Of a stretch of DNA of 22,014 bases, positions 1,294-22,014 are shown piece after piece; within the stretch, counting starts at the first letter, position 1; every line of letters begins with the position of its first letter. Below the pieces are notes generated by a model. That model had not been told where the DNA came from, did not search any database, and saw only the letters and a list, made by a program, of their open reading frames with translations. The position numbers and the translations under genes were made by a program. The stretch lies in IMG/VR virus record IMGVR_UViG_3300038427_000053; one strand, 5' to 3'. This DNA is from a virus.

Positions 1294-2016
1294 ATGGCAA
1301 CTCTTTTGAAGATTGTTGAGTGGGCACGGCCCTTCATCTCGAATTTGTTTTTGTTTGTGGATGGAAGCATTGAGCCTGCAATCACAAACGCCAATACTAT
1401 TTTGGGAACGATGCTTGGCCCTCCTTTCGTGTGGCCGTGGAATCGGAACACGCTCACCTTCACTTGCACAGTTGGAGAAACGGACACCGAAAAAACAGGC
1501 GTTAACGATTGGGGGTTTGCTGAGTCGGGGTATTTGAGCGTACCAGCGTCGGCTGCTTCCGATGCGAAAAATATCTACCAGCTTCAACCTCAGCGACAGA
1601 TCGAGATGTCATATCAGCCCGGTCGCCCGAGTTTGGTGAGTGAATTTTTGGATGACCAAGCTGGCACGATTACTTTCCGGCTTGGGTCTTCATGCCCTGA
1701 TCTTGCGTACCCGGTTGTGATTACGTACCAGAAGGGCGTGGAGTTGTTGACTGCTGTAGGAACCGATTTGCCGTTGCCGGATAAGGTATTGCACATTTTT
1801 CGATATGGATTTTTGGCACTGGCAATGTTGTACGATCAAGATTCGCGGTTTGCCGAGATCAATCAGAAGTTCATCGCTACTTTGCTTGGCTCGCAGCAAG
1901 GTCTTGACGAGATCACACGCAACATTTTCTTGAATGATTGGATGGGCTTGCTTGCTACGCAAGCATCGCTTGGTCCACATACACAGCAAGGGCACTCAGC
2001 ACGAGGTTCAATGTAA
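1294..2016 (+). CDS. Putative head-tail adaptor (tail tubular protein A-like)
   Basis: 240 aa, directly upstream of and TAATG-coupled to the hub/nozzle gene. WPWNR and YGFLALA motifs and a helical C-terminus are typical of podovirus adaptor proteins; the call rests mainly on synteny. Confidence 0.6.
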   Translation: MATLLKIVEWARPFISNLFLFVDGSIEPAITNANTILGTMLGPPFVWPWNRNTLTFTCTVGETDTEKTGVNDWGFAESGYLSVPASAASDAKNIYQLQPQRQIEMSYQPGRPSLVSEFLDDQAGTITFRLGSSCPDLAYPVVITYQKGVELLTAVGTDLPLPDKVLHIFRYGFLALAMLYDQDSRFAEINQKFIATLLGSQQGLDEITRNIFLNDWMGLLATQASLGPHTQQGHSARGSM

Positions 2017-5000
2017 TGGCAAATGCTCTTCTAGCAGCGGGTGCTGTCCCGAAGGGGCAGACCCATTGGGCACCTATCTTTTCCAATGAGTTCTTTTCCG
2101 GCCTTTGGACAAACCGAAATCCTCTTCGTGACCCTGCTACACCTTTCATCTACGGCAAGTTTTATTCGGCGTCTCGGTATGAGGCTTTGTGGGACGGCTT
2201 GAACACTGAAGTTTCGCCTCGTTTGACGTTGATTCGCGCCCCCGGACATTCTGTTTTCAATGCCAATACTTTTCCTTTCCTAAATGACTTCTACAGCTAC
2301 CAAGTCGATGGCGTTAACCGTCCGAACTTCGTGCGCCTTGTGGCGGACTCCGCAGACTACGTGTACGATCTGTACGACGCAACGACAGAGACGGATTCTG
2401 TAGCAGGGACTAACACTGGTCAAACGATACTTTTTACTAAGTCAGCAGGCGCAGGCCAGACGCGGTTTTTGAGCGTAGGCAACACCTTGTACATAGGGAA
2501 CGGTGTCGATAAATACCAGTATTTGACCTCCGGTTTTAAGTGGAAGGCTGGTTATGCGATGCCTTCCGGAGCATTCATTGTTGACGGAAATGGAAACATC
2601 CAGTTGGCGCTTGGCGTCACTGTGCCCTGCACAAACATCGTCATCAATGGTGGAACGCTGACAGCGACCGTCAACTATTTGGAAGACGGCCTCGGGAACA
2701 CCTTGCTTCAAGCGGGAACGCAGATTGTTTTGGAAAACATGAACTCGGCGTTTTTGAATGGTATGAGTTTGGTAGTGACCTCTGTATCGGCGACCGGCCC
2801 TACTATTACAGCGACTATCGCGTCCAGTGCAATTCCGAGTGGTGAAAATGAGAATCCCGGAGCGGATGGTGTCAATACTGGGTTTGTTGTTATCCAATCT
2901 TTGAATGGGATGCTAGGTTCTACTGCGCCTACCTTCAATACGAATTTCAACGGGCTGACGCTGGACAACAATGGTGCGACTCCGGGAACAAATCTGTGGC
3001 AGATGAAAGGCCCGGCGCTGCGCCGGTGGGGGATTGACTCTCCGACAACGATCATTACGCCGACAAATGCCATCAACACTTCGGTAGCTTCGACATGGGC
3101 AGCCAACACGTATTACATGCCGTCCGTTTTGCCTCAGACCGGACCCATGATCGTAGTGGGAAACTACATCTGGCAGTTGATTGCAGGCGGAACCACAGGA
3201 GGAACTCCGTCTTTTCCGGGCAGTCCGACAGTTGGAAGTACGACTTACACAGATGGTGGGGCTACTTGGAAGTGTGTGGCGGCGAAGACTCGGTTGCTTT
3301 CTCATGCTTATGCGCTTGGTGCTCTCATTGCGGTGACGTGGACTGTCACCAACTTAGTGACGGTGCAAGTTCCAAACCCTCCAAGTTATGGTCCTTATGG
3401 TCCTTATGGAGGTTCAGGAACAACTACTACTTATACTTATACTTATACGTACACAGCAGTTTTTCAATGCACTACTGCTGGCACTACGTCAAACGTGGCT
3501 GACAGCGGCGTTACTGGAAACAACCCTTCTCCGGCGTGGAACTCCGCACTAAAGGCGTATGTATCAGATGGGTCCGTGGTGTGGCAGAACATCGGGCTAG
3601 GCATCACACGGACAGATTCGGCGACAACCGGACCTGTGATGACAAGTAGCGATGACTATACTAATGTTATGACTGTTGGTAATATTGGAAATAGTATAGC
3701 GGTGTCGTTGCTCGGGCAGGTTCTTGACTCGAACGGCGCAATTGAGATTGTAAACATTGGTGGGCTGTCAGGCCCCGGACCTACAGCACCTTCTAGTGGG
3801 TGGAGTCAAATAGAGGGTGGTTCTACAACCGATAATCAGATTACATGGATTAATGGTGGGTCTAGCGCTGCCGTTGGGGGCATTGCAGCAGGAACGGCTA
3901 GCTGGTACTATACCTATGCCTATGTAGACGACATTACCGGATCGGTAGGGCAAGCAGCGCCCTTGTCTCCGGCGATTGTGCTTGCGCAGAACAGCTATGT
4001 CCAAGTTCAAGGTGCGTACTACATTCCTCCGTCTGGCCCTTATAATCGAATCGGAACCATTAATATCTATCGGACTCCGCAAGGTGGGCCAATCGCATAT
4101 TTGATCGCGCAAATTCCAAACGTGCCTACTGCGCAAGGGCCATGGACGTACAACGATTACTCGCCGGACCAAGGATCACCGGGTTCGACGATGAATAATC
4201 TTTTGAGCGCCGATCTGATTGGCTACAACTCTCCTCCGCCGGATGGTTTCATTCCGATCTGTTTGCACTTGAGCAGTATTTGGGGGTTTGTTGACAATGT
4301 GCTTTACTTCTCCGCAGGCGGAGATGTGACGAACATGAAAGGCGGATGGGAGGCGTTTCCAGCAGGAAACAATCTGTCTTTCCAGAGTACGGGCCATGTG
4401 GGTTGGGGAACAAATAGCGGTTTGTATGTTATCTTGGAAGATAGCATTCAATTGATTGCTGGAACCGCACCTCCATTCAGTCCGTCTCGCGTTGTGGGAA
4501 TTGGTATTCGTAGCCCGAACTGCTTTACGTTGAATGGGCAGAGTCCTTTCTTGTTCACATCCGACCGGCAAGTAATTGGCATCGACCCTAGCGCCGGTTG
4601 CACGGTTGACGGCTTCCCGATTGCGAACTTGCTTGCAGTAGCTCCATTTGATCCTTCGACTTCATACTTGACATGGCACGTTGATGGTACAGACCAGCGG
4701 CTCTTCATTGGAGACGGTGCCAAAGCTGCATCCGGTTCACAGGGCTATTACAACATGATTAACAGCATTACACCCGAGCCTCCAGCGGCGGTATGGTCGC
4801 CTAAGCGTGTAATCGCGGCAGGTTGTGGCTGCATCAAGTCCGTGGAAACATATGCCGGGAAATATCAGATGCTTGTAGCCCCAGCTACCAGTGGGCCTAT
4901 TTTGTACCGCGATATTACAAAGGCTACGGACAATGGTGCAAAGTATGCAGCATGGGCGATTGTAGGCTCGAACGTTTTGGCGCATCCGGGGCAGATTGCT

Positions 5001-5318
5001 GAGATAGGTTTTATTCATCTTGAAGCAGTTCGTACTGGAGGAGTTCCGAAGGTTGCGGTCTTGGTGGGTGAGGTAAGTGGTTGGCCGGGGTGTCCGCCGT
5101 TCGACGATTTGGGGAAGGTAGTGCATGATCCTCCACGGCTGCCTGAGAGTAAAAGTTTGCACTCTAATCGTTATTACATGACGCAAACTGGCAAGCCTGC
5201 GTGGTGTAGGCATCTCCAGATCAAAATTGCATTTGCTATAGAAGATGCTATGAATGAAGTATTATCCTTCACAGCATATGGTGCAATACATTTAGAGCGG
5301 TCGGAGAGTGGAAGATGA
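2016..5318 (+). CDS. Tail hub/nozzle protein (P22 gp10 / T7 gp12-like) with a large inserted repeat region
   Basis: Start moved from 1938 to ATG 2016 (TAATG overlap with the adaptor stop), giving 1100 aa. Beta-propeller-like blades (FLSVGNTLYIGNG; IWGFVDNVLYFS; GLYVILEDSI; LFTSDRQVIG) and an Ig/FN3-like YYTYAY...INIYRT...YND segment. Stop overlaps the next ATG (ATGA). Confidence 0.7.
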   Translation: MANALLAAGAVPKGQTHWAPIFSNEFFSGLWTNRNPLRDPATPFIYGKFYSASRYEALWDGLNTEVSPRLTLIRAPGHSVFNANTFPFLNDFYSYQVDGVNRPNFVRLVADSADYVYDLYDATTETDSVAGTNTGQTILFTKSAGAGQTRFLSVGNTLYIGNGVDKYQYLTSGFKWKAGYAMPSGAFIVDGNGNIQLALGVTVPCTNIVINGGTLTATVNYLEDGLGNTLLQAGTQIVLENMNSAFLNGMSLVVTSVSATGPTITATIASSAIPSGENENPGADGVNTGFVVIQSLNGMLGSTAPTFNTNFNGLTLDNNGATPGTNLWQMKGPALRRWGIDSPTTIITPTNAINTSVASTWAANTYYMPSVLPQTGPMIVVGNYIWQLIAGGTTGGTPSFPGSPTVGSTTYTDGGATWKCVAAKTRLLSHAYALGALIAVTWTVTNLVTVQVPNPPSYGPYGPYGGSGTTTTYTYTYTYTAVFQCTTAGTTSNVADSGVTGNNPSPAWNSALKAYVSDGSVVWQNIGLGITRTDSATTGPVMTSSDDYTNVMTVGNIGNSIAVSLLGQVLDSNGAIEIVNIGGLSGPGPTAPSSGWSQIEGGSTTDNQITWINGGSSAAVGGIAAGTASWYYTYAYVDDITGSVGQAAPLSPAIVLAQNSYVQVQGAYYIPPSGPYNRIGTINIYRTPQGGPIAYLIAQIPNVPTAQGPWTYNDYSPDQGSPGSTMNNLLSADLIGYNSPPPDGFIPICLHLSSIWGFVDNVLYFSAGGDVTNMKGGWEAFPAGNNLSFQSTGHVGWGTNSGLYVILEDSIQLIAGTAPPFSPSRVVGIGIRSPNCFTLNGQSPFLFTSDRQVIGIDPSAGCTVDGFPIANLLAVAPFDPSTSYLTWHVDGTDQRLFIGDGAKAASGSQGYYNMINSITPEPPAAVWSPKRVIAAGCGCIKSVETYAGKYQMLVAPATSGPILYRDITKATDNGAKYAAWAIVGSNVLAHPGQIAEIGFIHLEAVRTGGVPKVAVLVGEVSGWPGCPPFDDLGKVVHDPPRLPESKSLHSNRYYMTQTGKPAWCRHLQIKIAFAIEDAMNEVLSFTAYGAIHLERSESGR
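3386..3455 (+). repeat. Micro-repeats TTATGGTCC x2.8 and TATACT-type repeats encoding YGPYGPYG and TYTYTYTYT
   Basis: Seen directly: ttatggtcc ttatggtcc ttatgga (3386-3410) and tatact tatact tatacg tacaca (3432-3455). Confidence 0.85.
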
Positions 5319-5788
5319 TTGTTTATCTTATTACTAACCTAATCAATGGTAAACAATATGTAGGAAAAACAACAAGATCATTAAAGGTAAGATGGGCACG
5401 CCATCAGTATGAGGCTATTAGGGGTCGTAAACAGGCTCTTTATTATGCAATTAGGAAATATGGAGCCGTATGTTTTAGTATAGAGGTTTTAGAAGAGGCA
5501 GACCTTAAAACAGAACAAGATATGAATCTTTGTGAGATTCTATATATCAAATTTCTGAATACTAAAGCGCCTAATGGTTATAATTTAACAGATGGTGGTG
5601 AAGGAACTATTGGAAGAGAGGTAAGTCTTGAAACTAGAAATAAACTTAGTAAAGCACTTACAGGAAAACGTGCTTCTCAAGAAACTAAAGATAAAATGAG
5701 AAAAATTTCTTTAGAACGTGGCGCACGTCCTCCGTCTAGAAAAGGAATTGCTCCTTGGAATAAGGGTAGAAATGCCGACACTAGATAA
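5315..5788 (+). CDS. Free-standing GIY-YIG homing endonuclease with NUMOD3-like DNA-binding tail
   Basis: IVYLITNLINGKQYVGKT...RWARH...E...GYNLTDGGEG catalytic domain followed by SLETRNKLS / SQETKDKMR / PWNKG motifs. AT-rich (about 33% GC in line 5341-5400). Confidence 0.93.
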   Translation: MIVYLITNLINGKQYVGKTTRSLKVRWARHQYEAIRGRKQALYYAIRKYGAVCFSIEVLEEADLKTEQDMNLCEILYIKFLNTKAPNGYNLTDGGEGTIGREVSLETRNKLSKALTGKRASQETKDKMRKISLERGARPPSRKGIAPWNKGRNADTR

Positions 5789-6893
5789 GTCAACTCAGAA
5801 GCCGAAGGGAGTAGGCCCAGCAATTACACCTGTGGCACCTACTGCGTTGCCTCCACCAAGTGATGCTAGTACGGTGACGCGCACTACCTTCCCTACTTCT
5901 ACGCCTGTTAGCCCGGACACTTTGAATTTGTGGAATGATCGAAGCGCCGGGCTTCCTACACGAGGGCGGCTGATCCCAGTTACGGCGGCTGGCGCTGGCG
6001 GATCGGGGTCCGGCTCGCAAGGTAGCCAAGGCAACCAAGGTAGTGCTGGAACATCGGGTAGCTCTGTTACAGGGTCGCAAGGCAATCAGGGCAACCAAGG
6101 CAATCAAGGGAACCAATCCTCTGTCGCTGGGCCTCAAGGGAACCAAGGCAATCAAGGTAACCAAGGACCCTTTGCGGGAACATCACTGGTTCAAACTACT
6201 AATCAGAACTCCCATGGGCTAGGGTCTCCCGGAGCGTGGGTCGCAGTCTACTTCGACGAAGGTTCTTCGCTTTGGAAGAAAGCCAAGGCAGACAACGCCA
6301 ACACTCTTGGCTTCGCAATTGCTGTCATCATCGACAGTAATAACTTTTCTCTGTATACCGAAGGACAAATTACTGGCGGCTCTGGTTTGACAGCCGGTGA
6401 GTATTACTTCGTTAGCGACTCTGTTGCAGGCCAATTGACGACCACAGAGCCTACCGCCTCGACGAGCTATTCAAATCCGTTGATGCAAGCAACGTCATCG
6501 ACGACCGCCGTGATGGGGCAGTTTCGGCCAAGTCAGATCGCGCCCTTGACTCCTCAGCCTGTGCCGGTGTTGGTTCAAGCCGGTGCTGGCCCAGTGGCCG
6601 ACCCCGGCGGGAATGATTATTATCTCGCCAACAATTATGGAGTTTTGACATTCAATGTTCCAGCGGGCAGCGTGGTCGGTATGCAGCGTTGCTACTACAA
6701 CTACGTTGGAATTTCCGGCGCGATTACGTTGCAGATGGCAGCTAGCAACAAATGTTCTTTATACGGCGTAGACAGTGGAAGCGCAGGCACAGTTTTTGCA
6801 AGTGGTGTCGCGGGAGATTCGGTTGTTCTGGTCTGTGATGCAACAAATCACTGGACTGCTTTTGTTGTGGCCGGGACGTGGAGTAAAACGTAA
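5772..6893 (+). CDS. Collagen-like modular tail fibre / virion decoration protein
   Basis: Start moved from 5718 to ATG 5772 (after AAGGGT). Pro/Thr/Ser-rich N-terminus, interrupted GSQ/GNQ collagen, a WKKAKAD...GLTAGEYYFVS...GQLTTTEP beta-module common in phage fibres, and a C-terminal GDSVVLV...W...GTW module. Confidence 0.7.
   Translation: MPTLDKSTQKPKGVGPAITPVAPTALPPPSDASTVTRTTFPTSTPVSPDTLNLWNDRSAGLPTRGRLIPVTAAGAGGSGSGSQGSQGNQGSAGTSGSSVTGSQGNQGNQGNQGNQSSVAGPQGNQGNQGNQGPFAGTSLVQTTNQNSHGLGSPGAWVAVYFDEGSSLWKKAKADNANTLGFAIAVIIDSNNFSLYTEGQITGGSGLTAGEYYFVSDSVAGQLTTTEPTASTSYSNPLMQATSSTTAVMGQFRPSQIAPLTPQPVPVLVQAGAGPVADPGGNDYYLANNYGVLTFNVPAGSVVGMQRCYYNYVGISGAITLQMAASNKCSLYGVDSGSAGTVFASGVAGDSVVLVCDATNHWTAFVVAGTWSKT
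6012..6173 (+). repeat. Interrupted Gly-Ser/Asn-Gln collagen repeat
   Basis: GSQ GSQ GNQ GSA GTS GSS VT GSQ (GNQ)4 SSVA GPQ (GNQ)3 GPF; the DNA is built from degenerate 9-mers (ggNaaYcaR). Confidence 0.85.
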
Positions 6894-7531
6894 TGGAGCC
6901 AAGGTCAAGAATTTTGAATGCGCTCAAACACAAGAAGAAGTCAGTAACGGTCATTAGTAATGGCCTTTTCATGGGAAACATTGCTTGGGCTATAGACCTT
7001 GGAGCCGTACCAACTTCTGGCAATCTGTGTATTGCTATGTTTTCTGTTGATGACTCGGTTTTTCCTTGGGATGTGTTTAACGGATGGACACAGCAGGCTT
7101 CATTGAATAGCGGATCGACGGGCGACAATTATTCAGCTTCTAAAGTTGCCGTGCCGGGCGACCCTAGATACCCAGAGTTTCAGGCAGGCTCAAACATTGG
7201 CTCTGCGGATGGTGCGATGGGTGGTTGGCAGTTCCTTGGAGCGCCTACTGTTACATGGGGATCAGGAATTTGCACGGGTGGTGGTGGTACATTTTACACG
7301 CCGACGATTGTATCTGATGCGCTGAGCTATGTGATTATATTCACATCTTGTGAGGGGGCTGCTGTAACAGGCTGGTCGCCCGCAGGCTTTTCTCAGTGGG
7401 GGTATTACCGGGGAAGTTGGGTAGGAGTCATGACAGGAGCTATGAATCAGCCGTTTTCTATGACTTACACCGGCACGCCAACGAATGGGAACATGGTTTA
7501 TTTGTACGCAGTGGTAAATTGGGGAATGTAA
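6893..7531 (+). CDS. Tail accessory beta-sandwich protein (hypothetical)
   Basis: TAATG-coupled, 212 aa, G/S/T/W-rich. Shares a PTxGNLxI...G(W/F)xQ...GD motif with ORF 3..1283. Confidence 0.6.
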   Translation: MEPRSRILNALKHKKKSVTVISNGLFMGNIAWAIDLGAVPTSGNLCIAMFSVDDSVFPWDVFNGWTQQASLNSGSTGDNYSASKVAVPGDPRYPEFQAGSNIGSADGAMGGWQFLGAPTVTWGSGICTGGGGTFYTPTIVSDALSYVIIFTSCEGAAVTGWSPAGFSQWGYYRGSWVGVMTGAMNQPFSMTYTGTPTNGNMVYLYAVVNWGM

Positions 7532-7536
7532 AGACG

Positions 7537-8466
7537 ATGGCACAGACAGCTATAATTCGCGCTCTTGGAGGCTCGCAGGGCTTTCAGGGTAATCAGGGAA
7601 ATCAAGGTAATCAAGGCGCAGCGGGCAGCCAAGGTAACCAAGGCAATCAAGGGACGGCCGGCGCGGCAGGCTCACAAGGTAATCAAGGCGCAGCGGGCAG
7701 CCAAGGTAACCAAGGCAATCAAGGGACGGCCGGCGCGGCAGGCTCACAAGGTAATCAAGGCGCAGCGGGCAGCCAAGGTAACCAAGGCAACCAAGGCAAT
7801 CAGGGTAACACGGGAAGTAGTGGCGGAGTTTATCCTTTTACAGGATTTACCGCTCCTTCTAGTTCGGGATTTGGTTGGGTAAATCAGGGGTCTGCGTCTG
7901 TAACAATACAAAATGGTGTTTTGGTAATGCGCGCCCCCGGAACAGGTGGTGACAGTCTTCGTTTTTACGAAAAAACGTTGCCTACTACGCCGTGGACTAT
8001 AATTGGGGCGTTTGTGAAACGACCAAACTTTTTCATGTATCCGACAACACCGGCGGCGGAACCCGGTGGTTGGTATGACGGAATTGGGCTGTCTGACGGA
8101 ACCAAGTTCTTATTTTTTGGTGTAGCGGATAATAACAGTTATAACACACTTACCAATTTACCAACGCTTAACCTTGATGAATATAGCAATACGACTACTT
8201 TTTCAGGCACTCGTCTTTTTAGTATGAATATCTACATCTGGCCTCCAATTTGGTGGTTCAAAATCTATGATGACGGCACTAATCGAACCTATTGGATAAG
8301 CGTCGATCCAACTAATGCGGGTTGGCAAGAGATTTATACACACGCTCATACTGCATATTTAACTCCTAGTCAGGGGGGCTACATTATGGATGCATGGGAT
8401 GCTCATCTTAATGGTGTTACTGTGACCAGCAATGTTTGGGTTTCGTTTCAGATATTAAGCTCGTAG
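7537..8466 (+). CDS. Collagen-like tail fibre with a C-terminal ConA/L-lectin-like (probable receptor-binding) domain
   Basis: Start moved from 7396 to ATG 7537, just after the upstream stop. 28 uninterrupted Gly-X-Y triplets, then an aromatic-rich beta domain (WFKIYDDGTNRTYWISVD...WQEI) resembling ConA-like lectin folds. Confidence 0.75.
   Translation: MAQTAIIRALGGSQGFQGNQGNQGNQGAAGSQGNQGNQGTAGAAGSQGNQGAAGSQGNQGNQGTAGAAGSQGNQGAAGSQGNQGNQGNQGNTGSSGGVYPFTGFTAPSSSGFGWVNQGSASVTIQNGVLVMRAPGTGGDSLRFYEKTLPTTPWTIIGAFVKRPNFFMYPTTPAAEPGGWYDGIGLSDGTKFLFFGVADNNSYNTLTNLPTLNLDEYSNTTTFSGTRLFSMNIYIWPPIWWFKIYDDGTNRTYWISVDPTNAGWQEIYTHAHTAYLTPSQGGYIMDAWDAHLNGVTVTSNVWVSFQILSS
7603..7790 (+). repeat. Exact 72-bp tandem repeat, about 2.6 copies, within the collagen tract
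   Basis: Unit caaggtaatcaaggcgcagcgggcagccaaggtaaccaaggcaatcaagggacggccggcgcggcaggctca starts at 7603, 7675 and 7747 (third copy 44 bp); the copies are identical. Confidence 0.95.
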
Positions 8467-8469
8467 AAC

Positions 8470-8498
8470 TTGCTTTTAGACTTGACTTGTGCTAAACT
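8470..8498 (+). promoter_or_regulatory. Putative sigma70-type promoter for the glycosylation cassette
   Basis: TTGCTT (8470-8475), 17-bp spacer, TAAACT (8493-8498) with an extended -10 TGn. Lies in the largest intergenic gap of the tail region, 35 nt before ATG 8534. Confidence 0.6.
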
Positions 8499-8533
8499 GT
8501 TGGCATGAGTCAAATTCGGTTTTTGGAGAGTGT

Positions 8534-11062
8534 ATGCGCACGTGGGATTTGTTCGACACGCTCGCAGCGGGCAGGGTAATCGGTCCTCCGGCGGGAGAGC
8601 AAGAGCATCATTTCAAGCTAGCAGAGAACGTGGCACGGGTCGAAAAAGGTGATTTGGTTGTGTCTGACTATTACGATCCGAAGAAGGCCATGGGCGTCTT
8701 GAGAAAGGTTTGTGGCCTACAAAACGAGCTTCTCGTGACGGCTAGTGGGAAGCGTACCGGCGCAGTATGGCATAACTTGCAAGGCCAAGTCGAGGCGCAT
8801 GTCGGTGACGATGAAATATCCGATGTGCAAGTTCCCCGGCAGTTCGATATTCCAGCGGAGCGTACAAATCTATCCGCTCCTACGGACGTGGAAGGGTTTC
8901 TTTTTCGGTCGGGATTTCCTGGCTTGTCTACGTGCTGCCGAGAGGCACGTCTGACTTCGTATGACAAAGAGTTTCGTGGGTACGAACTCTTGCAAGCACA
9001 GGTCAATTTTCCGTTCCTGTTTCTCTGCGGCATTCTGCTTCATGCGAAATTGGACGGCGTAACGAGCGTTTTGATGTCGAGCCGTGATTGCTGCCTTTGG
9101 TTTTCCTTGATGCGAAAGGTGTGTAAGCTGCTTGGAGGCAAATACCACCTTCATTATTATCTGAGCAGCCGGCTGTCGCGCTTGAAGGCGTCCCCGGAGC
9201 ATCTAGCCTATACAAATTCTTTGCTTGGAGGACCTCTGCGGCCTTCTCCGGCAGTGGTAGATTTTGTATGGTACGGAGGAACGCTAGCGAAGTTACTCGC
9301 TAAGACATCCGCTCCGAACGTGCCGATCTTCGTTTTGGGAAAGTACACTTCGGCGAATACGCGCTCTGAGGCGCTGTTGCCCGAGACTAGAATGCTGTCG
9401 CACATCGAAGGTGCGAATCGGGCGCGTCATGCGATGGTTGCGGACACCGACGAGAAAGGCCATCCGACATACTACAACCCCTCAGGATTCCAGTGGGAGA
9501 AGTCAAAAGAGATTCAGGCCGGGCATGAGACTTTTCGGCTTGCCGAAGAAGCGATGTCTAATTATGATTTTTCTAAGGACATCGCACAGCCTCTTGAGCA
9601 TATACGGGCGACGGCTTTTACTTTGGCGGAACGTTTCGAGCAGTTCGGTACTGAGATTGACTATCTGGACCGGCGCTTGATGAACATCGAAGAGGGGGCT
9701 ATAAAGGCTGCGGTTAATGCGCTGGACCCGAAGTATTATGACACGCCGTGGTCTCCCATGTGGGGCGGGTCTGCTCCTGTGCCAGAACCTCCGCCTCTGC
9801 ATACTTTGCAGGTGAAGGATGGAGTGCGGGTTTCGATTTTCACGCCGACGCACAACCCGGTGTGGTTGCGCGAGGCTTACAACTCAATCAAGAACCAGCC
9901 GTTTTACGAATGGGTGATCGTGTACAACTCAGGTTCACCCCGGATTGGGTTTGACAAGGACCCGCGAGTTAAAGAGTTTGATCTTCTGGACAAAGGAAGG
10001 GGATTTACAGAGCCGTTCAAGATTGGGTTCCTGAAGAACGATGCGTGCTTACGCTGTACTGGCGACGTAATGCTGGAACTGGACCACGACGACATGTTGC
10101 TGCCCGGCGCTATCGAGGAAGTCCAGAGAGCCTTCGAGGACCCGGCGGTCGGGTTTGTCTATTCCAACGATGTGCTGTTTACGCCGACCTTTGAGCGCCC
10201 GACCCGATTTAATCCTGCGTGTGGATGGCAGTGGCGGGAGTACGATTACAACGGCCATTCTTTGGACGAGGTAGTTCAATGGGAACCACATCCGGCTAAT
10301 GTGGGCCGCATCTGGTTTGCGCCGGATCATCTACGATCATGGCGCAGTGATTTGTATAGGTCGATTGGCGGGCATGATAAGAATCGAGGCTGGCTTGACG
10401 ATTTGGACTTGATGTGCCGACTGTATCCATTAACTACTTTCAAACATATCGACAAGCCCCTGTACATGTACCGCATTCATGGCGGGAATACGTGGCTACG
10501 GCCTGAGATTAATAAGGCAATTCAGGAAGATGTATGGCCGACGTGGGATATGTATATTCAAGGAATGGCGGAGGTGTGGGCTAAAAGGAAAGGATTAAAG
10601 CTGCTAGAACTAGGTGGTAGGATGGCAGCAAAGCTTGGCTATATTACAGTTGATTTGAAAGATGCAGATGTGATTACAGACCTTAACAAACCATGGCCGT
10701 GGGAAGATTCAACGGTTGGTGTAGTAAGAGCTTATGATGTGTTTGAGCATCTTACTGATTCATTGCACACTTTCAAAGAATTGTATCGAGTGCTTTCACC
10801 GGGAGGTATGGCTTTCATTCAAGTTCCTTCAACAGATGGTAGAGGGGCGTGGGCCGATCCTACACATAAAACGTTCTACAACGTAAATTCTTTTTATTAC
10901 TTTATGGATCGTAATTTTGCAAAGTATATTGACACGCCTGTACGATTTTACATGCCCCGATTGTTTACGACTACGAAAGATGGGAGCGGGACTTGCTGGG
11001 TCAGGGCCGATGCAATTTCTTTGAAAAATGGATTTCGCCCCGGCGGAGAGATTACAATTTAG
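8534..11062 (+). CDS. Multidomain glycan-synthesis enzyme: HAD phosphatase, PRT-like domain, GT2 glycosyltransferase, SAM-dependent methyltransferase
   Basis: Start ATG 8534 after GGAG. HAD motifs WDLFDTL / VVSD / GKRTG / HVGDDEISD; then SSRD (9077) and VVDFVWYGGT (9254). GT-A fold VSIFTPTHN...ELDHDD (10082). Methyltransferase LLELGG...DLNKPWPWEDSTV...DVFEHL...ELYRVLSPGG...ADPTH. Confidence 0.85.
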   Translation: MRTWDLFDTLAAGRVIGPPAGEQEHHFKLAENVARVEKGDLVVSDYYDPKKAMGVLRKVCGLQNELLVTASGKRTGAVWHNLQGQVEAHVGDDEISDVQVPRQFDIPAERTNLSAPTDVEGFLFRSGFPGLSTCCREARLTSYDKEFRGYELLQAQVNFPFLFLCGILLHAKLDGVTSVLMSSRDCCLWFSLMRKVCKLLGGKYHLHYYLSSRLSRLKASPEHLAYTNSLLGGPLRPSPAVVDFVWYGGTLAKLLAKTSAPNVPIFVLGKYTSANTRSEALLPETRMLSHIEGANRARHAMVADTDEKGHPTYYNPSGFQWEKSKEIQAGHETFRLAEEAMSNYDFSKDIAQPLEHIRATAFTLAERFEQFGTEIDYLDRRLMNIEEGAIKAAVNALDPKYYDTPWSPMWGGSAPVPEPPPLHTLQVKDGVRVSIFTPTHNPVWLREAYNSIKNQPFYEWVIVYNSGSPRIGFDKDPRVKEFDLLDKGRGFTEPFKIGFLKNDACLRCTGDVMLELDHDDMLLPGAIEEVQRAFEDPAVGFVYSNDVLFTPTFERPTRFNPACGWQWREYDYNGHSLDEVVQWEPHPANVGRIWFAPDHLRSWRSDLYRSIGGHDKNRGWLDDLDLMCRLYPLTTFKHIDKPLYMYRIHGGNTWLRPEINKAIQEDVWPTWDMYIQGMAEVWAKRKGLKLLELGGRMAAKLGYITVDLKDADVITDLNKPWPWEDSTVGVVRAYDVFEHLTDSLHTFKELYRVLSPGGMAFIQVPSTDGRGAWADPTHKTFYNVNSFYYFMDRNFAKYIDTPVRFYMPRLFTTTKDGSGTCWVRADAISLKNGFRPGGEITI

Positions 11063-11072
11063 AGGCGTATAA

Positions 11073-11465
11073 ATGGCTTTCAAAAACATCGAAGAAAGAC
11101 GTGCATATCGTAGAAAGTGGTATAAATTACATCCAGAAAAGTGGAAAATTTATTATGAAAATAAGAAGAAAAAGGGCTTGAAAAAACTTAGAAAACAAGA
11201 AAGAAACCAATATTTACGGCGTGAATATGGTATAACAACAATTAAGTGGGGTATGCTTTTTGAAAAACAAGGTAGACGTTGTGCTAATCCGGGATGCCGT
11301 GCTAGCATTCCCGGCTATCGTAATTGGCATACCGATCACAAGCCCGGAAGCAACCCTCCTATTGTACGTGGTATTCTGTGCCACGGTTGTAATACCGCTC
11401 TTGGACTGGCCAAAGATAACCCTGTTGTATTACGTGGTCTAGCTGATTATTTGGAGACTCATTAG
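11073..11465 (+). CDS. Endonuclease VII-family HNH endonuclease (probably a free-standing homing endonuclease)
   Basis: YLRREYGIT...QGRRCANPGC...HTDH...VRGILCHGCNTALG...YL is the recombination endonuclease VII Zn/HNH signature. Lys-rich N-terminus; AT-rich. Confidence 0.9.
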   Translation: MAFKNIEERRAYRRKWYKLHPEKWKIYYENKKKKGLKKLRKQERNQYLRREYGITTIKWGMLFEKQGRRCANPGCRASIPGYRNWHTDHKPGSNPPIVRGILCHGCNTALGLAKDNPVVLRGLADYLETH

Positions 11466-11466
11466 A

Positions 11467-12591
11467 ATGCAAAAAGTCTGGCTAAACATGATTGTCAAAG
11501 ATGGTGCTTCTACGATTAAACGCTGTCTTGATTCTGTAAAGCCGATTCTTAAGGGCTATGCGATTGTTGACACGGGTTCTACAGACGGAACGCAAGACAT
11601 TATTCGGATGGAGTTGGCTGATTTACCCGGCAAATTGATTGAGATTCCGTTCCAAGATTTTTCTCAGGCTCGCAATGAAGCTCTGAAACTAGTTAAGGAA
11701 TTGTGCGAGAAAAACGATTACATTCTTTTACTCGATGCTGACGAAGAGCTTTGTTACCATGCAGAGCACAGCATTCCAGACTTGAAGGCTGATTGCTATG
11801 ACTCGCTTATTCGTCTTCGGAATTTGGAATATTGGCGGATGCTTATCGTGCGGGCAGGGTTGCCTTGGTGTTGGCGGGGTGCGTGCCATGAGTATTTAGA
11901 TTGCGCCGGATTATTTCGCAGAGAGAGACTAGATTGCTGGCGTCAAGCTTACGAGCATCCCGAGAGAAGCGGCAAGGAAGTTTCGCTTGCCCACGCCGCC
12001 TTGCTGGAAAAGAGCCTAAAGGAAAACCCCGGAGATTCGCGGTCGGTGTTCTACTACGCGCAGTGTTTGCGAGACGCGGGCAGCCTCATGCAGGCCGAGG
12101 CGCAGTATCAGCGGCGCGTACAGATGGGCGGGTTTCAGGAAGAAGTCTACGTCTCGCTGTTGGAGATTGGCCGCATCTGTGAACGCGGTGCCAAACAGCC
12201 GGGCGTAGTGATCGACGCTTACCTTCGTGCATACGCATTTCGACCGGGGCGTGCTGAGGCTTTGGGAAGTCTGTTGCAGTTTCTTCGTAAGCAGCGCCGG
12301 TATTACGAAGCGACGATGTTTGCTTCTGAGGCTCTGTCGTTGAGGCTGTCTCACGATGTTCTCTTCGTCGAAGGGGACTGGTTGAAGTGGAGGTTGTTAG
12401 ACGAGATCACGTTCTGTGCGTATTGGGCTAACCGGCTTGATCTGGCAAAGATGTGTTCCGAAAAATTGCTCTTGTGCGATGTTCCGTCTACGGAGAGGAC
12501 TCGCATTGACTGTAACCATAAAGTGATTTTGGATGCTTCGCTTGGCATTACAAATCCTCACGCAAAACAAATCTTCAAAGCATCTGCATAG
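11467..12591 (+). CDS. GT2 glycosyltransferase with C-terminal TPR repeats
   Basis: WLNMIVKD...RCLDSV...IVDTGSTDGT...FQDFSQARNEAL...YILLLDADE (DxD at 11734)...HEYL, then TPR-like RSVFYYAQCLRDAG...YLRAYAFRPGRAEAL...LFVE. Confidence 0.9.
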   Translation: MQKVWLNMIVKDGASTIKRCLDSVKPILKGYAIVDTGSTDGTQDIIRMELADLPGKLIEIPFQDFSQARNEALKLVKELCEKNDYILLLDADEELCYHAEHSIPDLKADCYDSLIRLRNLEYWRMLIVRAGLPWCWRGACHEYLDCAGLFRRERLDCWRQAYEHPERSGKEVSLAHAALLEKSLKENPGDSRSVFYYAQCLRDAGSLMQAEAQYQRRVQMGGFQEEVYVSLLEIGRICERGAKQPGVVIDAYLRAYAFRPGRAEALGSLLQFLRKQRRYYEATMFASEALSLRLSHDVLFVEGDWLKWRLLDEITFCAYWANRLDLAKMCSEKLLLCDVPSTERTRIDCNHKVILDASLGITNPHAKQIFKASA

Positions 12592-12612
12592 TTTGCGGTA
12601 GGAGACAACGGC

Positions 12613-12993
12613 ATGTACCGAAAACTGACGGCAGAGGACTATGCTTTGCTTAAAGCGGAAATCCTCAAGGACGAAGTGCATAGCAAGGATTCTGCGTTTT
12701 CTTTGGATATTTTTACAAATCCTGATACTCGAAGTATTGTATTTGAGGATTCCAAAGGTGTGGTGTTTTATGCCAATCTTTGTAAAGAGATGCGTATTAC
12801 CATTCAATTTTGTAATGGCGTTGAGAAAGAACGCATCCGAAGAATATTTGAACAGCACATTCCAGAATTTGCGACTGCTTTCAAAAAAGCAGGCTACATA
12901 GCATTTGTATATGAAACCAAAAGTAAAGTGCTTTCTTGGTTTCTACGTCGTTTTGGATTTAGATCAACGGAAATTCAGCGAAAAGAGTTGTAA
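12613..12993 (+). CDS. GNAT-fold virion assembly protein (P22 gp14 / T7 gp13 positional analogue)
   Basis: 126 aa with a GGAGA RBS. C-terminal ...SWFLRRFGF resembles the GNAT acetyl-CoA-binding end motif; sits just before the ejection genes. Confidence 0.5.
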   Translation: MYRKLTAEDYALLKAEILKDEVHSKDSAFSLDIFTNPDTRSIVFEDSKGVVFYANLCKEMRITIQFCNGVEKERIRRIFEQHIPEFATAFKKAGYIAFVYETKSKVLSWFLRRFGFRSTEIQRKEL

Positions 12994-13020
12994 TAAGTTA
13001 GGCTCGTGAGAGGCATAAAA

Positions 13021-13710
13021 ATGAAAATTCACATTAAGACTACATGGGACTGGCAAGGCAATGTTCTTGAAGACGTTTGGTATGAATGGAGTGGCCCTGT
13101 TGAAAGATGTTGTGGTGCCCCGTCTGGCCAAACTGCACTAGCCTCTGCTCAATCTAGCTACTATGGTACTTTGACCTCTCAGGCAGAACAAGAGTTTGGA
13201 CAGGCCAGTGCTCTTGCTGCTGAGTTTAAGAGCGAGTTCGAGCCTATCTTCGCTGCCGGGCCAAGTCAAAAAGGCTGGTCGCCAGAAGAAGCAACTGCTG
13301 TTAATACCAACACTCTTACTACTGAGGGACAAGCCACGGCGAATGCTTTGCAAGCCTCGAATTTGAAGACTAACGCGCTTGGTGGTGGAAATGAGTATGT
13401 ACCACAAGGTACGGTAAAAGAATTACAAACCGGAATAAACGTCTCTGGCGCAGAAGCTACTGCGACTGCACAACAAAATAACTTGATTCAGAATTACGAA
13501 CAAGGCTTCCAGAACTTCGAGATGGCGGCGCAAGGACTTGAAAGTATTCCATCGTTGTATTCAGGATCGACTGGCGCAGCAGGCGCAGCAACTCAAAGTG
13601 GCGCAGCAGCGGGGCAAACGTACAATGAAATTGCTCAAGAATCATTTGCGCCATGGGGTGCGGCGCTTGGTGCGGTTAGCTCTGTAGCCGCAGGCTCGAA
13701 GTATGTGTAA
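13021..13710 (+). CDS. Small ejection/pilot protein (P22 gp7-like position)
   Basis: Start moved to ATG 13021 (GAGAGG 7 nt upstream). Leader ending YEWSGPVERCCG, then an Ala/Gln/Ser/Thr-rich helical body and a hydrophobic Gly/Ala C-terminus (WGAALGAVSSVAAG). Confidence 0.6.
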   Translation: MKIHIKTTWDWQGNVLEDVWYEWSGPVERCCGAPSGQTALASAQSSYYGTLTSQAEQEFGQASALAAEFKSEFEPIFAAGPSQKGWSPEEATAVNTNTLTTEGQATANALQASNLKTNALGGGNEYVPQGTVKELQTGINVSGAEATATAQQNNLIQNYEQGFQNFEMAAQGLESIPSLYSGSTGAAGAATQSGAAAGQTYNEIAQESFAPWGAALGAVSSVAAGSKYV

Positions 13711-20091: not shown

Positions 20092-20592
20092 ATGGTTATT
20101 TATCTAATTCGCAACAAAATCAACGGAAAAGAATACGTCGGACAGACTGTGCAAAGTTTAGAACGACGTTGGCAAATCCATTTGTGTGGAAAACAACAAG
20201 CTATTGATCTGGCTATTAAGAAGTATGGTGCTGAAAATTTTGAATTATCAACATTAGCATGGCCACGAACTTTAGAAGAAATGAATGTTGGAGAAGAGGC
20301 CCATATATTTTCACGCCATACGATAGCTCCGAAGGGATACAACCTACTTCCCGGAGGCAACAATCATCGCCCTACCTCCGAAACTAGAGCCAAACTTCGA
20401 GCATCTCGTGCTGGCCAAATACGCCCTTCTTGTACTGAAGAAACAAAATTAAAAATGAGACTAGCACATTTGGGAAAACCCGGAACCATGTTGGGAAAGA
20501 AGTTTACACAGGAACACAGAAAAAAATTAAGCATTGCGGCGTTTAAGCGCGAAGCAGTAAGGAGACAAATTCGTGCCTCTTCCAATATATGA
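20092..20592 (+). CDS. Free-standing GIY-YIG homing endonuclease with NUMOD3-like motifs (second copy)
   Basis: VIYLIRNKINGKEYVGQT...RWQIH...GYNLLPGG; SETRAKLR / EETKLKMR / GKKFTQEHRKKLS. Confidence 0.93.
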   Translation: MVIYLIRNKINGKEYVGQTVQSLERRWQIHLCGKQQAIDLAIKKYGAENFELSTLAWPRTLEEMNVGEEAHIFSRHTIAPKGYNLLPGGNNHRPTSETRAKLRASRAGQIRPSCTEETKLKMRLAHLGKPGTMLGKKFTQEHRKKLSIAAFKREAVRRQIRASSNI

Positions 20593-21924: not shown

Positions 21925-22014
21925 TTAGCCTTGGTCTATTGTTCTTCCTTTTGGAAGTACTTTTACTACTTTTCCTGTTTCATCTAGCTCCGTCACATGG
22001 CCATCTCGCATTAC
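21925..22014 (-). CDS. Probable 3' end of a minus-strand gene running off the window
   Basis: Open frame ...VMRDGHVTELDETGKVVKVLPKGRTIDQG* ends just before the RBS of the 21913 ORF; only 30 codons are visible. Confidence 0.35.
   Translation of the reverse strand, partial: VMRDGHVTELDETGKVVKVLPKGRTIDQG

Follow-up and report, generated by a model that had tools for sequence, protein, structure and literature searches.

A candidate fibre-glycosylation cassette linked to collagen-like proteins in the tail module of a podovirus

Introduction

The A064R protein of chlorovirus PBCV-1, which combines two glycosyltransferase domains with a methyltransferase, builds a capsid glycan, and mimivirus encodes collagen-like proteins together with L230, a hydroxylase-glucosyltransferase. 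In C. difficile, SgtA, a protein of 358 amino acids (aa) that pairs a GT-A domain with one further domain, attaches beta-O-GlcNAc to Thr residues in the GPT repeats of BclA3 in vitro (PMC7157674). Glycosyltransferases encoded near the structural genes of mycobacteriophages modify virion proteins, according to Freeman et al. (2023) as cited in PMC12619734. A different kind of transfer is carried out by Bcs3, in which a CrpP HAD phosphatase is followed by CriT; the latter moves ribofuranose 5-phosphate from phosphoribosyl pyrophosphate (PRPP), and the catalytic residues Asp386 and Asp680 are both required for activity (PMC10299916). The present study concerns a cassette at positions 5772–12591 of the viral DNA fragment IMGVR_UViG_3300038427_000053 (22,014 nucleotides; the whole analysed stretch is referred to here as the window), in which genes for collagen-like fibres stand beside two enzyme genes, one encoding a four-module protein with a GT2 glycosyltransferase and a methyltransferase domain, and the other a GT2 enzyme with tetratricopeptide repeats (TPR).

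Gene neighbourhoods in phages and bacteria strongly support a link between both enzyme families and collagen-like proteins, and it appears probable, although far from assured, that the two enzymes glycosylate the collagen-like fibres of the phage itself.

Results

Fibres and enzymes of the cassette

All of the cassette genes were located on the + strand, at the positions given in the initial annotation of this DNA. Fibre 2 (7537–8466, +) consists of a collagen repeat with 28 uninterrupted G-X-Y triplets, mainly GNQ and GSQ, and a C-terminal globular domain, and it matched Pfam Collagen (1.1e-14, 54.3 bits against a cut-off of 27.2) and a PHROG tail fibre (4.5e-26). Fibre 1 (5772–6893, +), with its Ser/Thr/Pro-rich N-terminus, interrupted GNQ/GSQ collagen-like stretch and globular C-terminus, was weakly collagen-like, scoring 16.3 bits against the same Pfam cut-off and 6e-9 for the PHROG tail fibre. 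So, the initial description of collagen-like fibres is clear for fibre 2, and applies weakly to the interrupted repeat of fibre 1. No Lys residue is present in the collagen repeats of the window, and Ser/Thr-rich stretches outside such repeats were found in fibre 1 and in a 1101-aa tail protein encoded upstream.

The first enzyme gene (8534–11062, +) encodes an 842-aa protein with the modules arranged in the order CrpP-like HAD phosphatase, CriT-like ribofuranosyl-phosphate transferase, GT2 and methyltransferase. The phosphatase core (residues 1–115; 8534–8878, +), recognised by alignment with Bcs3, by its AlphaFold 2 (AF2) model and by invariant columns, contains WDLFDTL as motif I (Asp5), Ser44/Asp45, Lys73 and GD92, and Asp5, Thr9, Ser44, Lys73 and Asp92 are conserved among homologues. 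The CriT-like ribofuranosyl-5-phosphate transferase (residues 116–400; 8879–9733, +), identified by profile comparison with the PDB and by Foldseek, has an invariant Arg184-Asp185 pair (SSRDC). In the sequence alignment, which ends at Bcs3 residue 712, before E818 and E874 of that protein, TWDLFDTL of the window aligns with TFD386IFDTL and SSRD185C with ISRD680G. A profile of 30 N-terminal homologues matched Bcs3 (5e-7) and 7SHG (2e-4) in the PDB, and the same two structures were the top Foldseek matches (1e-10 and 1e-9, respectively) of the AF2 model of the N-terminal 400 aa, for which the predicted local distance difference test (pLDDT) value was 90. An exhaustive search gave 571 cluster representatives matching residues 1–430, many of them fused to GT2, GT4, methyltransferase or TPR domains, and CriT fusions were present among the homologues (P0147–P0149).

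The GT2 (GT-A) module of the same protein (residues 434–690; 9833–10603, +) matched PF00535 (7.7e-7, 29.6 bits against a cut-off of 23.3) and contains an invariant ELDHDD as its DXD motif; its profile matched K4CP (7e-17) and GalT1 (1e-10) in the PDB, as well as TarS and SpsA. The last module (residues 700–842; 10631–11062, +) is probably a small class I S-adenosylmethionine-dependent methyltransferase, matching PF08241 Methyltransf_11 (3.6e-6, 28 bits against 21.2), with the profile matched in its C-terminal half only and with an atypical motif I, LELGGR; additionally, it matched PHROG 6636 methyltransferase (1.7e-10) and carries a conserved PSTDGRGA...DPTH motif. Common homologues of the 842-aa protein cover its C-terminal half only, i.e., GT2 plus methyltransferase, and this family is called GT2-methyltransferase below. 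A copy of the whole protein with 99% identity (P0121) was found on a 91.9-kb contig, and another close homologue (P0001) was 89% identical. Read as a list of parts, the initial proposal of an enzyme that extends, ribosylates and methyl-caps a glycan is a reasonable one; its ribosylating element is borne out by sequence similarity and fold (Bcs3, 7SHG) as well as by the catalytic motifs, and the donor substrates, including PRPP, are putative.

The second enzyme gene (11467–12591, +) encodes the GT2-TPR glycosyltransferase of 374 aa with the DXD motif D90-A-D92, which matched PF00535 GT2 (5.4e-8, above the cut-off) and TPR_17 (4.8e-6) in Pfam. D90, D92 and the nucleotide-binding motifs were invariant in a 14-sequence alignment. 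SunS, GmaR and ThuS were the closest PDB sequences, and the AF2 model built from 14 homologues (pLDDT 91), with helices at residues 169–371, gave only SunS (1.2e-15, template modelling score 0.61) and ThuS (6e-14) as full-length Foldseek matches; GmaR (7x9r) was matched as well, and so were several TPR arms, among them the arm of O-GlcNAc transferase. The description of GT2-TPR as an enzyme of protein-glycosylating type thus agrees with its top sequence and fold matches, and by architecture it belongs with the polypeptide-glycosylating GT-A plus TPR enzymes, its own putative acceptor being a polypeptide. Assignment as a SunS orthologue was rejected (TIGR04195 at 31.5 bits against a cut-off of 350; identity of ~17%).

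No hydrophobic 19-mer above 1.6 on the Kyte–Doolittle scale was present in either enzyme, so both are soluble, as was expected from the earlier remark that they lack transmembrane segments. Its statement that no GtrA/GtrB-type flippase or bactoprenol transferase is present was likewise confirmed among the window proteins: no Pfam match to a Gtr-like protein (membrane flippase, bactoprenol glucosyltransferase or membrane GT-C) and no hydrophobic segment above 1.6 was found in any of them.

Gene neighbourhoods in viruses

For either family, alignment-based scans of IMG/VR detected more than 580 loci, while single-sequence scans of viral contigs with either enzyme gave nothing. The best 80 loci of each family were analysed and dereplicated at 80% identity of the anchor enzyme, resulting in 58 GT2-methyltransferase and 34 GT2-TPR loci; all counts given here refer to loci, not to independent evolutionary events, and carry no phylogenetic correction. 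Collagens were classed as Gln-type or Thr-type when Gln or Thr, respectively, occupied at least 40% of the Y positions, and adjacency was defined as a distance of at most 1.5 kb on the same strand.

A Gln-type collagen was present in 32 of the 58 GT2-methyltransferase loci and a Thr-type collagen in none, with 26 loci showing adjacency. The GT2-TPR loci gave the opposite picture, with no Gln-type collagen, a Thr-type collagen in 8 of 34, and adjacency in 6. With the two sets serving as mutual controls, Fisher tests gave p = 7e-9 and 2e-4. Moreover, the density of collagen open reading frames (ORFs) per 10 kb of flank decreased about tenfold with distance, from 1.47 at 0–2 kb to 0.15 at 8–10 kb, and Collagen was the commonest Pfam family directly beside the viral GT2-methyltransferase genes, followed by DUF6445.

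Among the neighbours of the viral GT2-methyltransferase genes (L082–L161), DUF6445 accounted for 7 of 104 and 2-oxoglutarate (2OG)-Fe(II) oxygenases for 2 of 104. DUF6445 is presumably oxygenase-like, and these neighbours hint at hydroxylation steps in some lineages; Pfam scans of the window proteins revealed no oxygenase. An exception to collagen adjacency was g90 of the cultured cyanomyovirus Synechococcus phage S-CRM01 (L163), a GT2-methyltransferase with 41% identity that is located among early and auxiliary genes, with no collagen within 7 kb on either side.

Gene neighbourhoods and partner collagens in bacteria

The GT2-methyltransferase family gave 569 matches in species-representative bacterial genomes, and among the best 80 loci, which came from Planctomycetota, several actinobacterial orders, Deltaproteobacteria, Bacteroidales and others, a collagen-like ORF was present in 65, lying within 1.5 kb in 55; nearly all of these collagens were of the Gly-X-Gln kind. 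A GT2-TPR gene was found in 11 of the 80 bacterial loci and was absent from the other 69, and none was present nearby in 73 of the 80 viral GT2-methyltransferase loci. Because the GT2-methyltransferase in this way accompanies Gly-X-Gln collagens mostly without GT2-TPR, it probably recognises collagen itself and may act on it directly.

The GT2-TPR family was present in 15 of 61 evenly sampled Streptomyces genomes. A collagen-like ORF lay nearby in 11 of these 15 loci, mostly in the adjacent position, so that the neighbourhood survey for GT2-TPR with collagen fibres proposed in the initial annotation placed the enzyme next to collagens in bacteria as well as in the six viral loci given above. 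For a polypeptide as acceptor, this proximity is indirect support. The Streptomyces branch nearest to the window enzyme co-occurs with GT2-methyltransferase and Gln-rich collagens, and a second branch stands alone with Thr-type collagens. Judged from gene order, the trio of collagen, GT2-TPR and GT2-methyltransferase is a recurrent module, not a chance juxtaposition.

The order of action that had initially been proposed, with GT2-TPR priming the fibres and the large enzyme extending the chain, was not upheld: most GT2-methyltransferase loci have no GT2-TPR gene, and the relatives of GT2-TPR track Gly-X-Thr collagens, triplets that are scarce in both fibres of the window.

Secreted Gly-X-Gln collagens were encoded together with GT2-TPR and GT2-methyltransferase within ~4 kb in the Streptomyces loci L218, L210, L239, L242, L265 and L266, and the collagens of these trios have a common C-terminal domain (…CDxGDxATGGG…).

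In the partner collagens as a whole (n = 112), the median number of Lys residues per triplet was 0, and Pro was sparse. The hydroxylysine route, of the animal or mimivirus type, was rejected on these grounds, the window repeats being free of Lys and the window of any oxygenase gene. In certain partner collagens, Ser and Thr were confined to the C-terminal domain, with none in the repeats.

Organisation of the window and transcription signals

The cassette occupies a fibre slot between genes conserved in Tunturi_3, a 97.6-kb podovirus of a tundra-soil acidobacterium (Tunturiibacter) (PMC11924767). Upstream, the slot is bounded by the gene for the 1101-aa large tail/virion protein (2013–5318, +), a gp19 homologue by synteny and by tblastn (36.5% identity, E 2e-68), which has a TTTTYTYTYTYT run at residues ~470–500 and several Ser/Thr/Gly-rich stretches. 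It is preceded by an adaptor/tail protein gene (1294–2016, +), homologous to gp13 (41% identity in tblastn; weak Pfam SU10_adaptor match, 1.4e-3), and by a 5'-truncated fibre-like structural ORF (3–1283, +), recognised from its translation and a weak PHROG tail-fibre match, which contains the short Thr-type collagen stretch GPQGAFGPAGPTGPTGPTGAS (GPTGPTGPT) and Pro/Thr/Ser-rich segments. The downstream boundary is formed by the gene for a 126-aa protein (12613–12993, +) that corresponds to gp22 by position and tblastn (24% identity, E 7e-5). The initial naming of this boundary gene as GNAT is plausible, since gp22 is annotated as an acetyltransferase and occupies the same position, although Pfam gave no match for the 126-aa protein. 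Large presumed internal or ejection proteins are encoded after 12993.

Synteny with Tunturi_3, which has podovirus morphotype, through gp13, gp19, gp22 and gp23 substantiated the assignment of the region to a podovirus tail module. Among GenBank phages, megablast found no counterpart of the window when its full length was used as query. In Tunturi_3 the gp19–gp22 interval contains a small fibre gene and an assembly gene (gp20/gp21), and in the window it contains the whole collagen and enzyme cassette; by this comparison of gene order, the cassette replaces gp20/gp21 between conserved flanks.

The structural block also contains three homing-endonuclease genes, two of GIY-YIG/NUMOD3 and one of Endonuclease VII/HNH type. 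Two of them, absent from the initial annotation, are interleaved with the cassette, namely a GIY-YIG/NUMOD3 gene (5315–5788, +; PF01541 6.8e-7, PF07460 3.1e-5) and the Endonuclease VII/HNH gene (11073–11465, +; PF02945 3e-16, PHROG 2914 4.7e-25), and the third lies at 20092–20592. The gene at 11073–11465 separates the two enzyme genes, which directly adjoin each other in Streptomyces. Between the fibre genes, a 212-aa protein (6893–7531, +), the start of which overlaps the fibre 1 stop codon (ATGA), had no match in Pfam, PHROG or NCBIfam and has no assigned function.

The enzyme genes had been described as standing behind their own promoter, and this view could not be sustained: 10 sigma-70-like sites were counted in the region 5000–13200 against 9.1 ± 3.0 in shuffled sequences, which is the chance level, and the same scan found none upstream of 8534. 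The gap between fibre 2 and the first enzyme gene contains a GGAGA ribosome-binding site and a terminator-like hairpin of 14 pairs followed by a T-run (8482–8513, +), which could reduce expression of the enzymes relative to the fibre.

Relatives and downstream clusters

Three genomes were compared, those of Tunturi_3, G002 and the window phage. The complete genome of Tunturi_3 lacks both enzyme families and any run of at least five G-X-Y triplets; in G002 (93 kb, CheckV 100% complete), Gln-type collagens occur with a GT2-GT2-methyltransferase and without GT2-TPR; and the window phage has both enzymes together with collagen fibres. Thus, the presence of the enzymes tracks the presence of collagens across the three genomes.

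The identical IMG/VR fragment G001 extends the sequence ~20 kb downstream of the window. A second glycan cluster begins at the window's end with the 3' end of a GT2 gene (21925–22014, −) and, in the extension (L164:5574-10656, minus strand), encodes GT2 (243 aa), an NAD-dependent epimerase/dehydratase (340 aa), two methyltransferases (235 and 209 aa) and a GT4-type protein (668 aa). This cluster may supply or extend the glycan. With the cassette and the second cluster taken together, the phage devotes to glycan synthesis no fewer than four glycosyltransferase domains and three methyltransferases, along with a ribosyl module and a sugar-nucleotide enzyme. Further downstream, a replication block (L164:11176-19424) encodes a family A DNA polymerase, a MazZ-like protein (PF18909, 1e-27), a Mom-family protein (PF25680, 6e-40), a ClpX-like AAA ATPase and RecA, with no PurZ-sized gene seen in this block. 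The phage DNA may carry base modifications.

Discussion

The cassette is most readily understood as a self-contained module for fibre decoration, in which the enzymes would assemble a short glycan on the fibre polypeptides late in infection, before or during virion assembly. GT2-TPR would be the likely transferase for Ser/Thr sites, with the TPR arm gripping the polypeptide, and candidate sites for it exist in the sparse Gly-X-Thr/Ser triplets, in the N-terminus of fibre 1 with its wealth of Ser, Thr and Pro, and in the ORF at 3–1283, where the GPTGPTGPT stretch makes the protein a third possible substrate, of the collagen type found beside relatives of GT2-TPR in other genomes; a candidate acceptor peptide is GNQGSQGTAGAAGSQ. 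The 842-aa enzyme could work as a four-step assembly line, with its GT2 domain adding a sugar for which a nucleotide sugar is the donor, the CriT-like domain adding ribofuranose 5-phosphate from PRPP, the CrpP-like HAD domain stripping the 5-phosphate and the methyltransferase module O-methylating the product. The benefit might lie in altered adsorption, in shielding from proteases or immunity, or in fibre stability.

Several observations weigh against glycosylation of the fibres. The evidence for it is of three kinds, sequence, fold and gene neighbourhood, and the known CrpP/CriT enzymes and the nearest GT2 structures (K4CP, TarS, SpsA) use polysaccharides or teichoic acids, not proteins. The fibres of the window have few Thr residues at Y, the residue type to which GT2-TPR is tied elsewhere, and the viral GT2-TPR neighbours are heterogeneous, with no single conserved partner. 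Some partner collagens of the GT2-methyltransferase are without Ser, Thr or Lys in their repeats, for example those in Micromonospora and Streptomyces with repeats such as GAQGVQGAQGADG..., in which Gln at Y is the sole constant feature. No collagen ORF was found near the CriT-like gene in the four other viral loci that carry one, and genes for DNA modification (Mom family, and a MazZ-like dATP/dGTP diphosphohydrolase) are present in the same phage, ~10 kb downstream of the window.

Two of these points also shape what the enzymes may be expected to do. Because the repeats of some partner collagens are free of Ser, Thr and Lys, simple O-glycosylation of the triple helix cannot be the general chemistry of the GT2-methyltransferase family, and the acceptor may lie outside the helix or be the conserved glutamine. 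Additionally, none of the 240 loci anchored on an enzyme gene (160 viral, 80 bacterial) contained a CriT-like domain, and the four other viral CriT loci are without collagen nearby; on this comparison of loci the ribosyl module is lineage-specific, an add-on of the phage lineage that stands outside the conserved module.

That the enzymes instead remodel the host surface, altering capsule, O-antigen, exopolysaccharide or teichoic acid on a cytoplasmic lipid-linked precursor, as a block to superinfection or an aid to release, seems to us unlikely. The fibre region would in that case be a hot spot of gene exchange in which such genes happen to reside, and those relatives of the ribofuranosyl part and the GT2 domain, three of the modules in all, that have been characterised do work on polysaccharides; the usual published reading of fibre-region glycosyltransferases favours O-chain modification (PMC7029224), and PHROG 13126 is classed as “moron/host takeover”. 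However, remodelling of the host surface leaves unexplained why collagens are adjacent both in unrelated phages and in the chromosomes of bacteria from several phyla, the window encodes no flippase, polyprenol-phosphate transferase or membrane protein, and the full-length fold of GT2-TPR matches peptide glycosyltransferases. The same adjacency in bacteria argues against a DNA target, and we consider it very improbable that the glycosyltransferases, ribosyl module and methyltransferase decorate phage bases against restriction, even though hypermodification is a common role of phage glycosyltransferases (PMC12619734) and the Mom-family and MazZ-like genes lie within reach; the cassette genes belong to the late structural block, on the structural strand, and neither a hydroxymethylase nor another base-activating enzyme was found in the window and the 20 kb scanned downstream.

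A further explanation keeps the modification on the virion and moves it away from the collagen repeats, to a capsid, tail or ejection protein or to the non-collagen part of a fibre, the link with collagen reflecting shared regulation. There is precedent in the mycobacteriophages, which glycosylate the capsid and tail tube, not fibres, in the account of Freeman et al. (2023) cited in PMC12619734, and possible acceptors exist in the Ser/Thr-rich stretches outside the repeats of fibre 1 and the 1101-aa protein and in those partner collagens that have Ser/Thr in the C-terminal domain. The adjacency is, however, specific to collagen-like ORFs, and collagen type (Gln or Thr at Y) tracks enzyme type, which makes this explanation doubtful in our view.

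A more radical variant would make the GT2-methyltransferase a dedicated modifier of Gly-X-Gln that needs no Ser/Thr, hydroxylysine or hydroxyproline and that either glycosylates or methylates Gln or reads the Gln-ladder and alters a flanking site. This variant is speculative and rather unlikely, and, if true, Gln-directed modification would be a collagen chemistry not described before, which many bacterial phyla would have in common with phages.

Should the fibres prove to be glycosylated, virion glycosylation of the autonomous kind, familiar from giant viruses and the siphoviruses of mycobacteria, would also occur in podoviruses of soil bacteria and on receptor-binding fibres, where a coat of glycan could affect host range, stability and recognition by antibodies. 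Moreover, collagen with GT2-methyltransferase, with or without GT2-TPR, is a very widespread uncharacterised module that is also present in the genetically tractable Streptomyces, and with the fused CrpP/CriT pair, PRPP-dependent addition of ribofuranose would for the first time be known from a setting other than polysaccharide synthesis.

Comparison with known systems

The enzymes of the cassette have separate counterparts among characterised proteins. Haemophilus influenzae Bcs3 and 7SHG, the polysaccharide ribofuranosyltransferase of Thermobacillus composti, share with the 842-aa enzyme the order of phosphatase and transferase, both catalytic Asp residues and the folds. The difference is that Bcs3 polymerises capsule and bears a TagF-like CroT and SH3b, whereas the pair in the window is fused to GT2 and methyltransferase, has a minimal HAD cap and lies in a phage fibre cassette. 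The glycocin S-glycosyltransferases SunS and ThuS (7MSN, 7MSP, 7MSK) and Listeria GmaR have the same GT-A domain and helical or TPR arm as GT2-TPR, and all of them act on polypeptides; SunS differs from the window enzyme in its low identity and in the missed equivalog cut-off reported above.

As a combination of enzyme and collagen, a close system is SgtA–BclA3. SgtA by its description resembles GT2-TPR in being a soluble protein of ~360 aa in which an N-terminal GT-A domain is joined to another domain; its gene lies next to that of a collagen-like surface protein, and the enzyme acts on the collagen repeats directly in the cytoplasm. The differences are that SgtA uses Thr of GPT, whereas the window repeats are mostly Gly-X-Gln, and that it has no fused ribosyl/GT2/methyl partner enzyme. 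The mycobacteriophages, as portrayed in the citing account, are siphoviruses of actinobacteria in which the targets are the C-termini of capsid and tail-tube subunits, and that account describes no collagen fibres, ribosyl module or methyltransferase fusion.

Mimivirus resembles the window phage in encoding collagen-like proteins and the enzymes that glycosylate them; its chemistry requires hydroxylysine, whereas the partner collagens considered here are essentially without Lys and have little Pro. A064R is likened to the 842-aa enzyme by description, both being single viral polypeptides in which glycosyltransferase modules are joined to a terminal sugar methyltransferase, for virion decoration without host machinery. 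Unlike the window protein, A064R comes from a eukaryotic giant virus and contains rhamnosyltransferases that build an N-linked capsid glycan, with no collagen substrate.

The initial annotation knew of no description of this combination in a podovirus, a statement that has to be narrowed, since SgtA–BclA3 and mycobacteriophage virion glycosylation are precedents in kind. What is distinctive here is the placement of such a cassette in the fibre slot of a podovirus and the fusion of a ribofuranosyl module to its enzyme.

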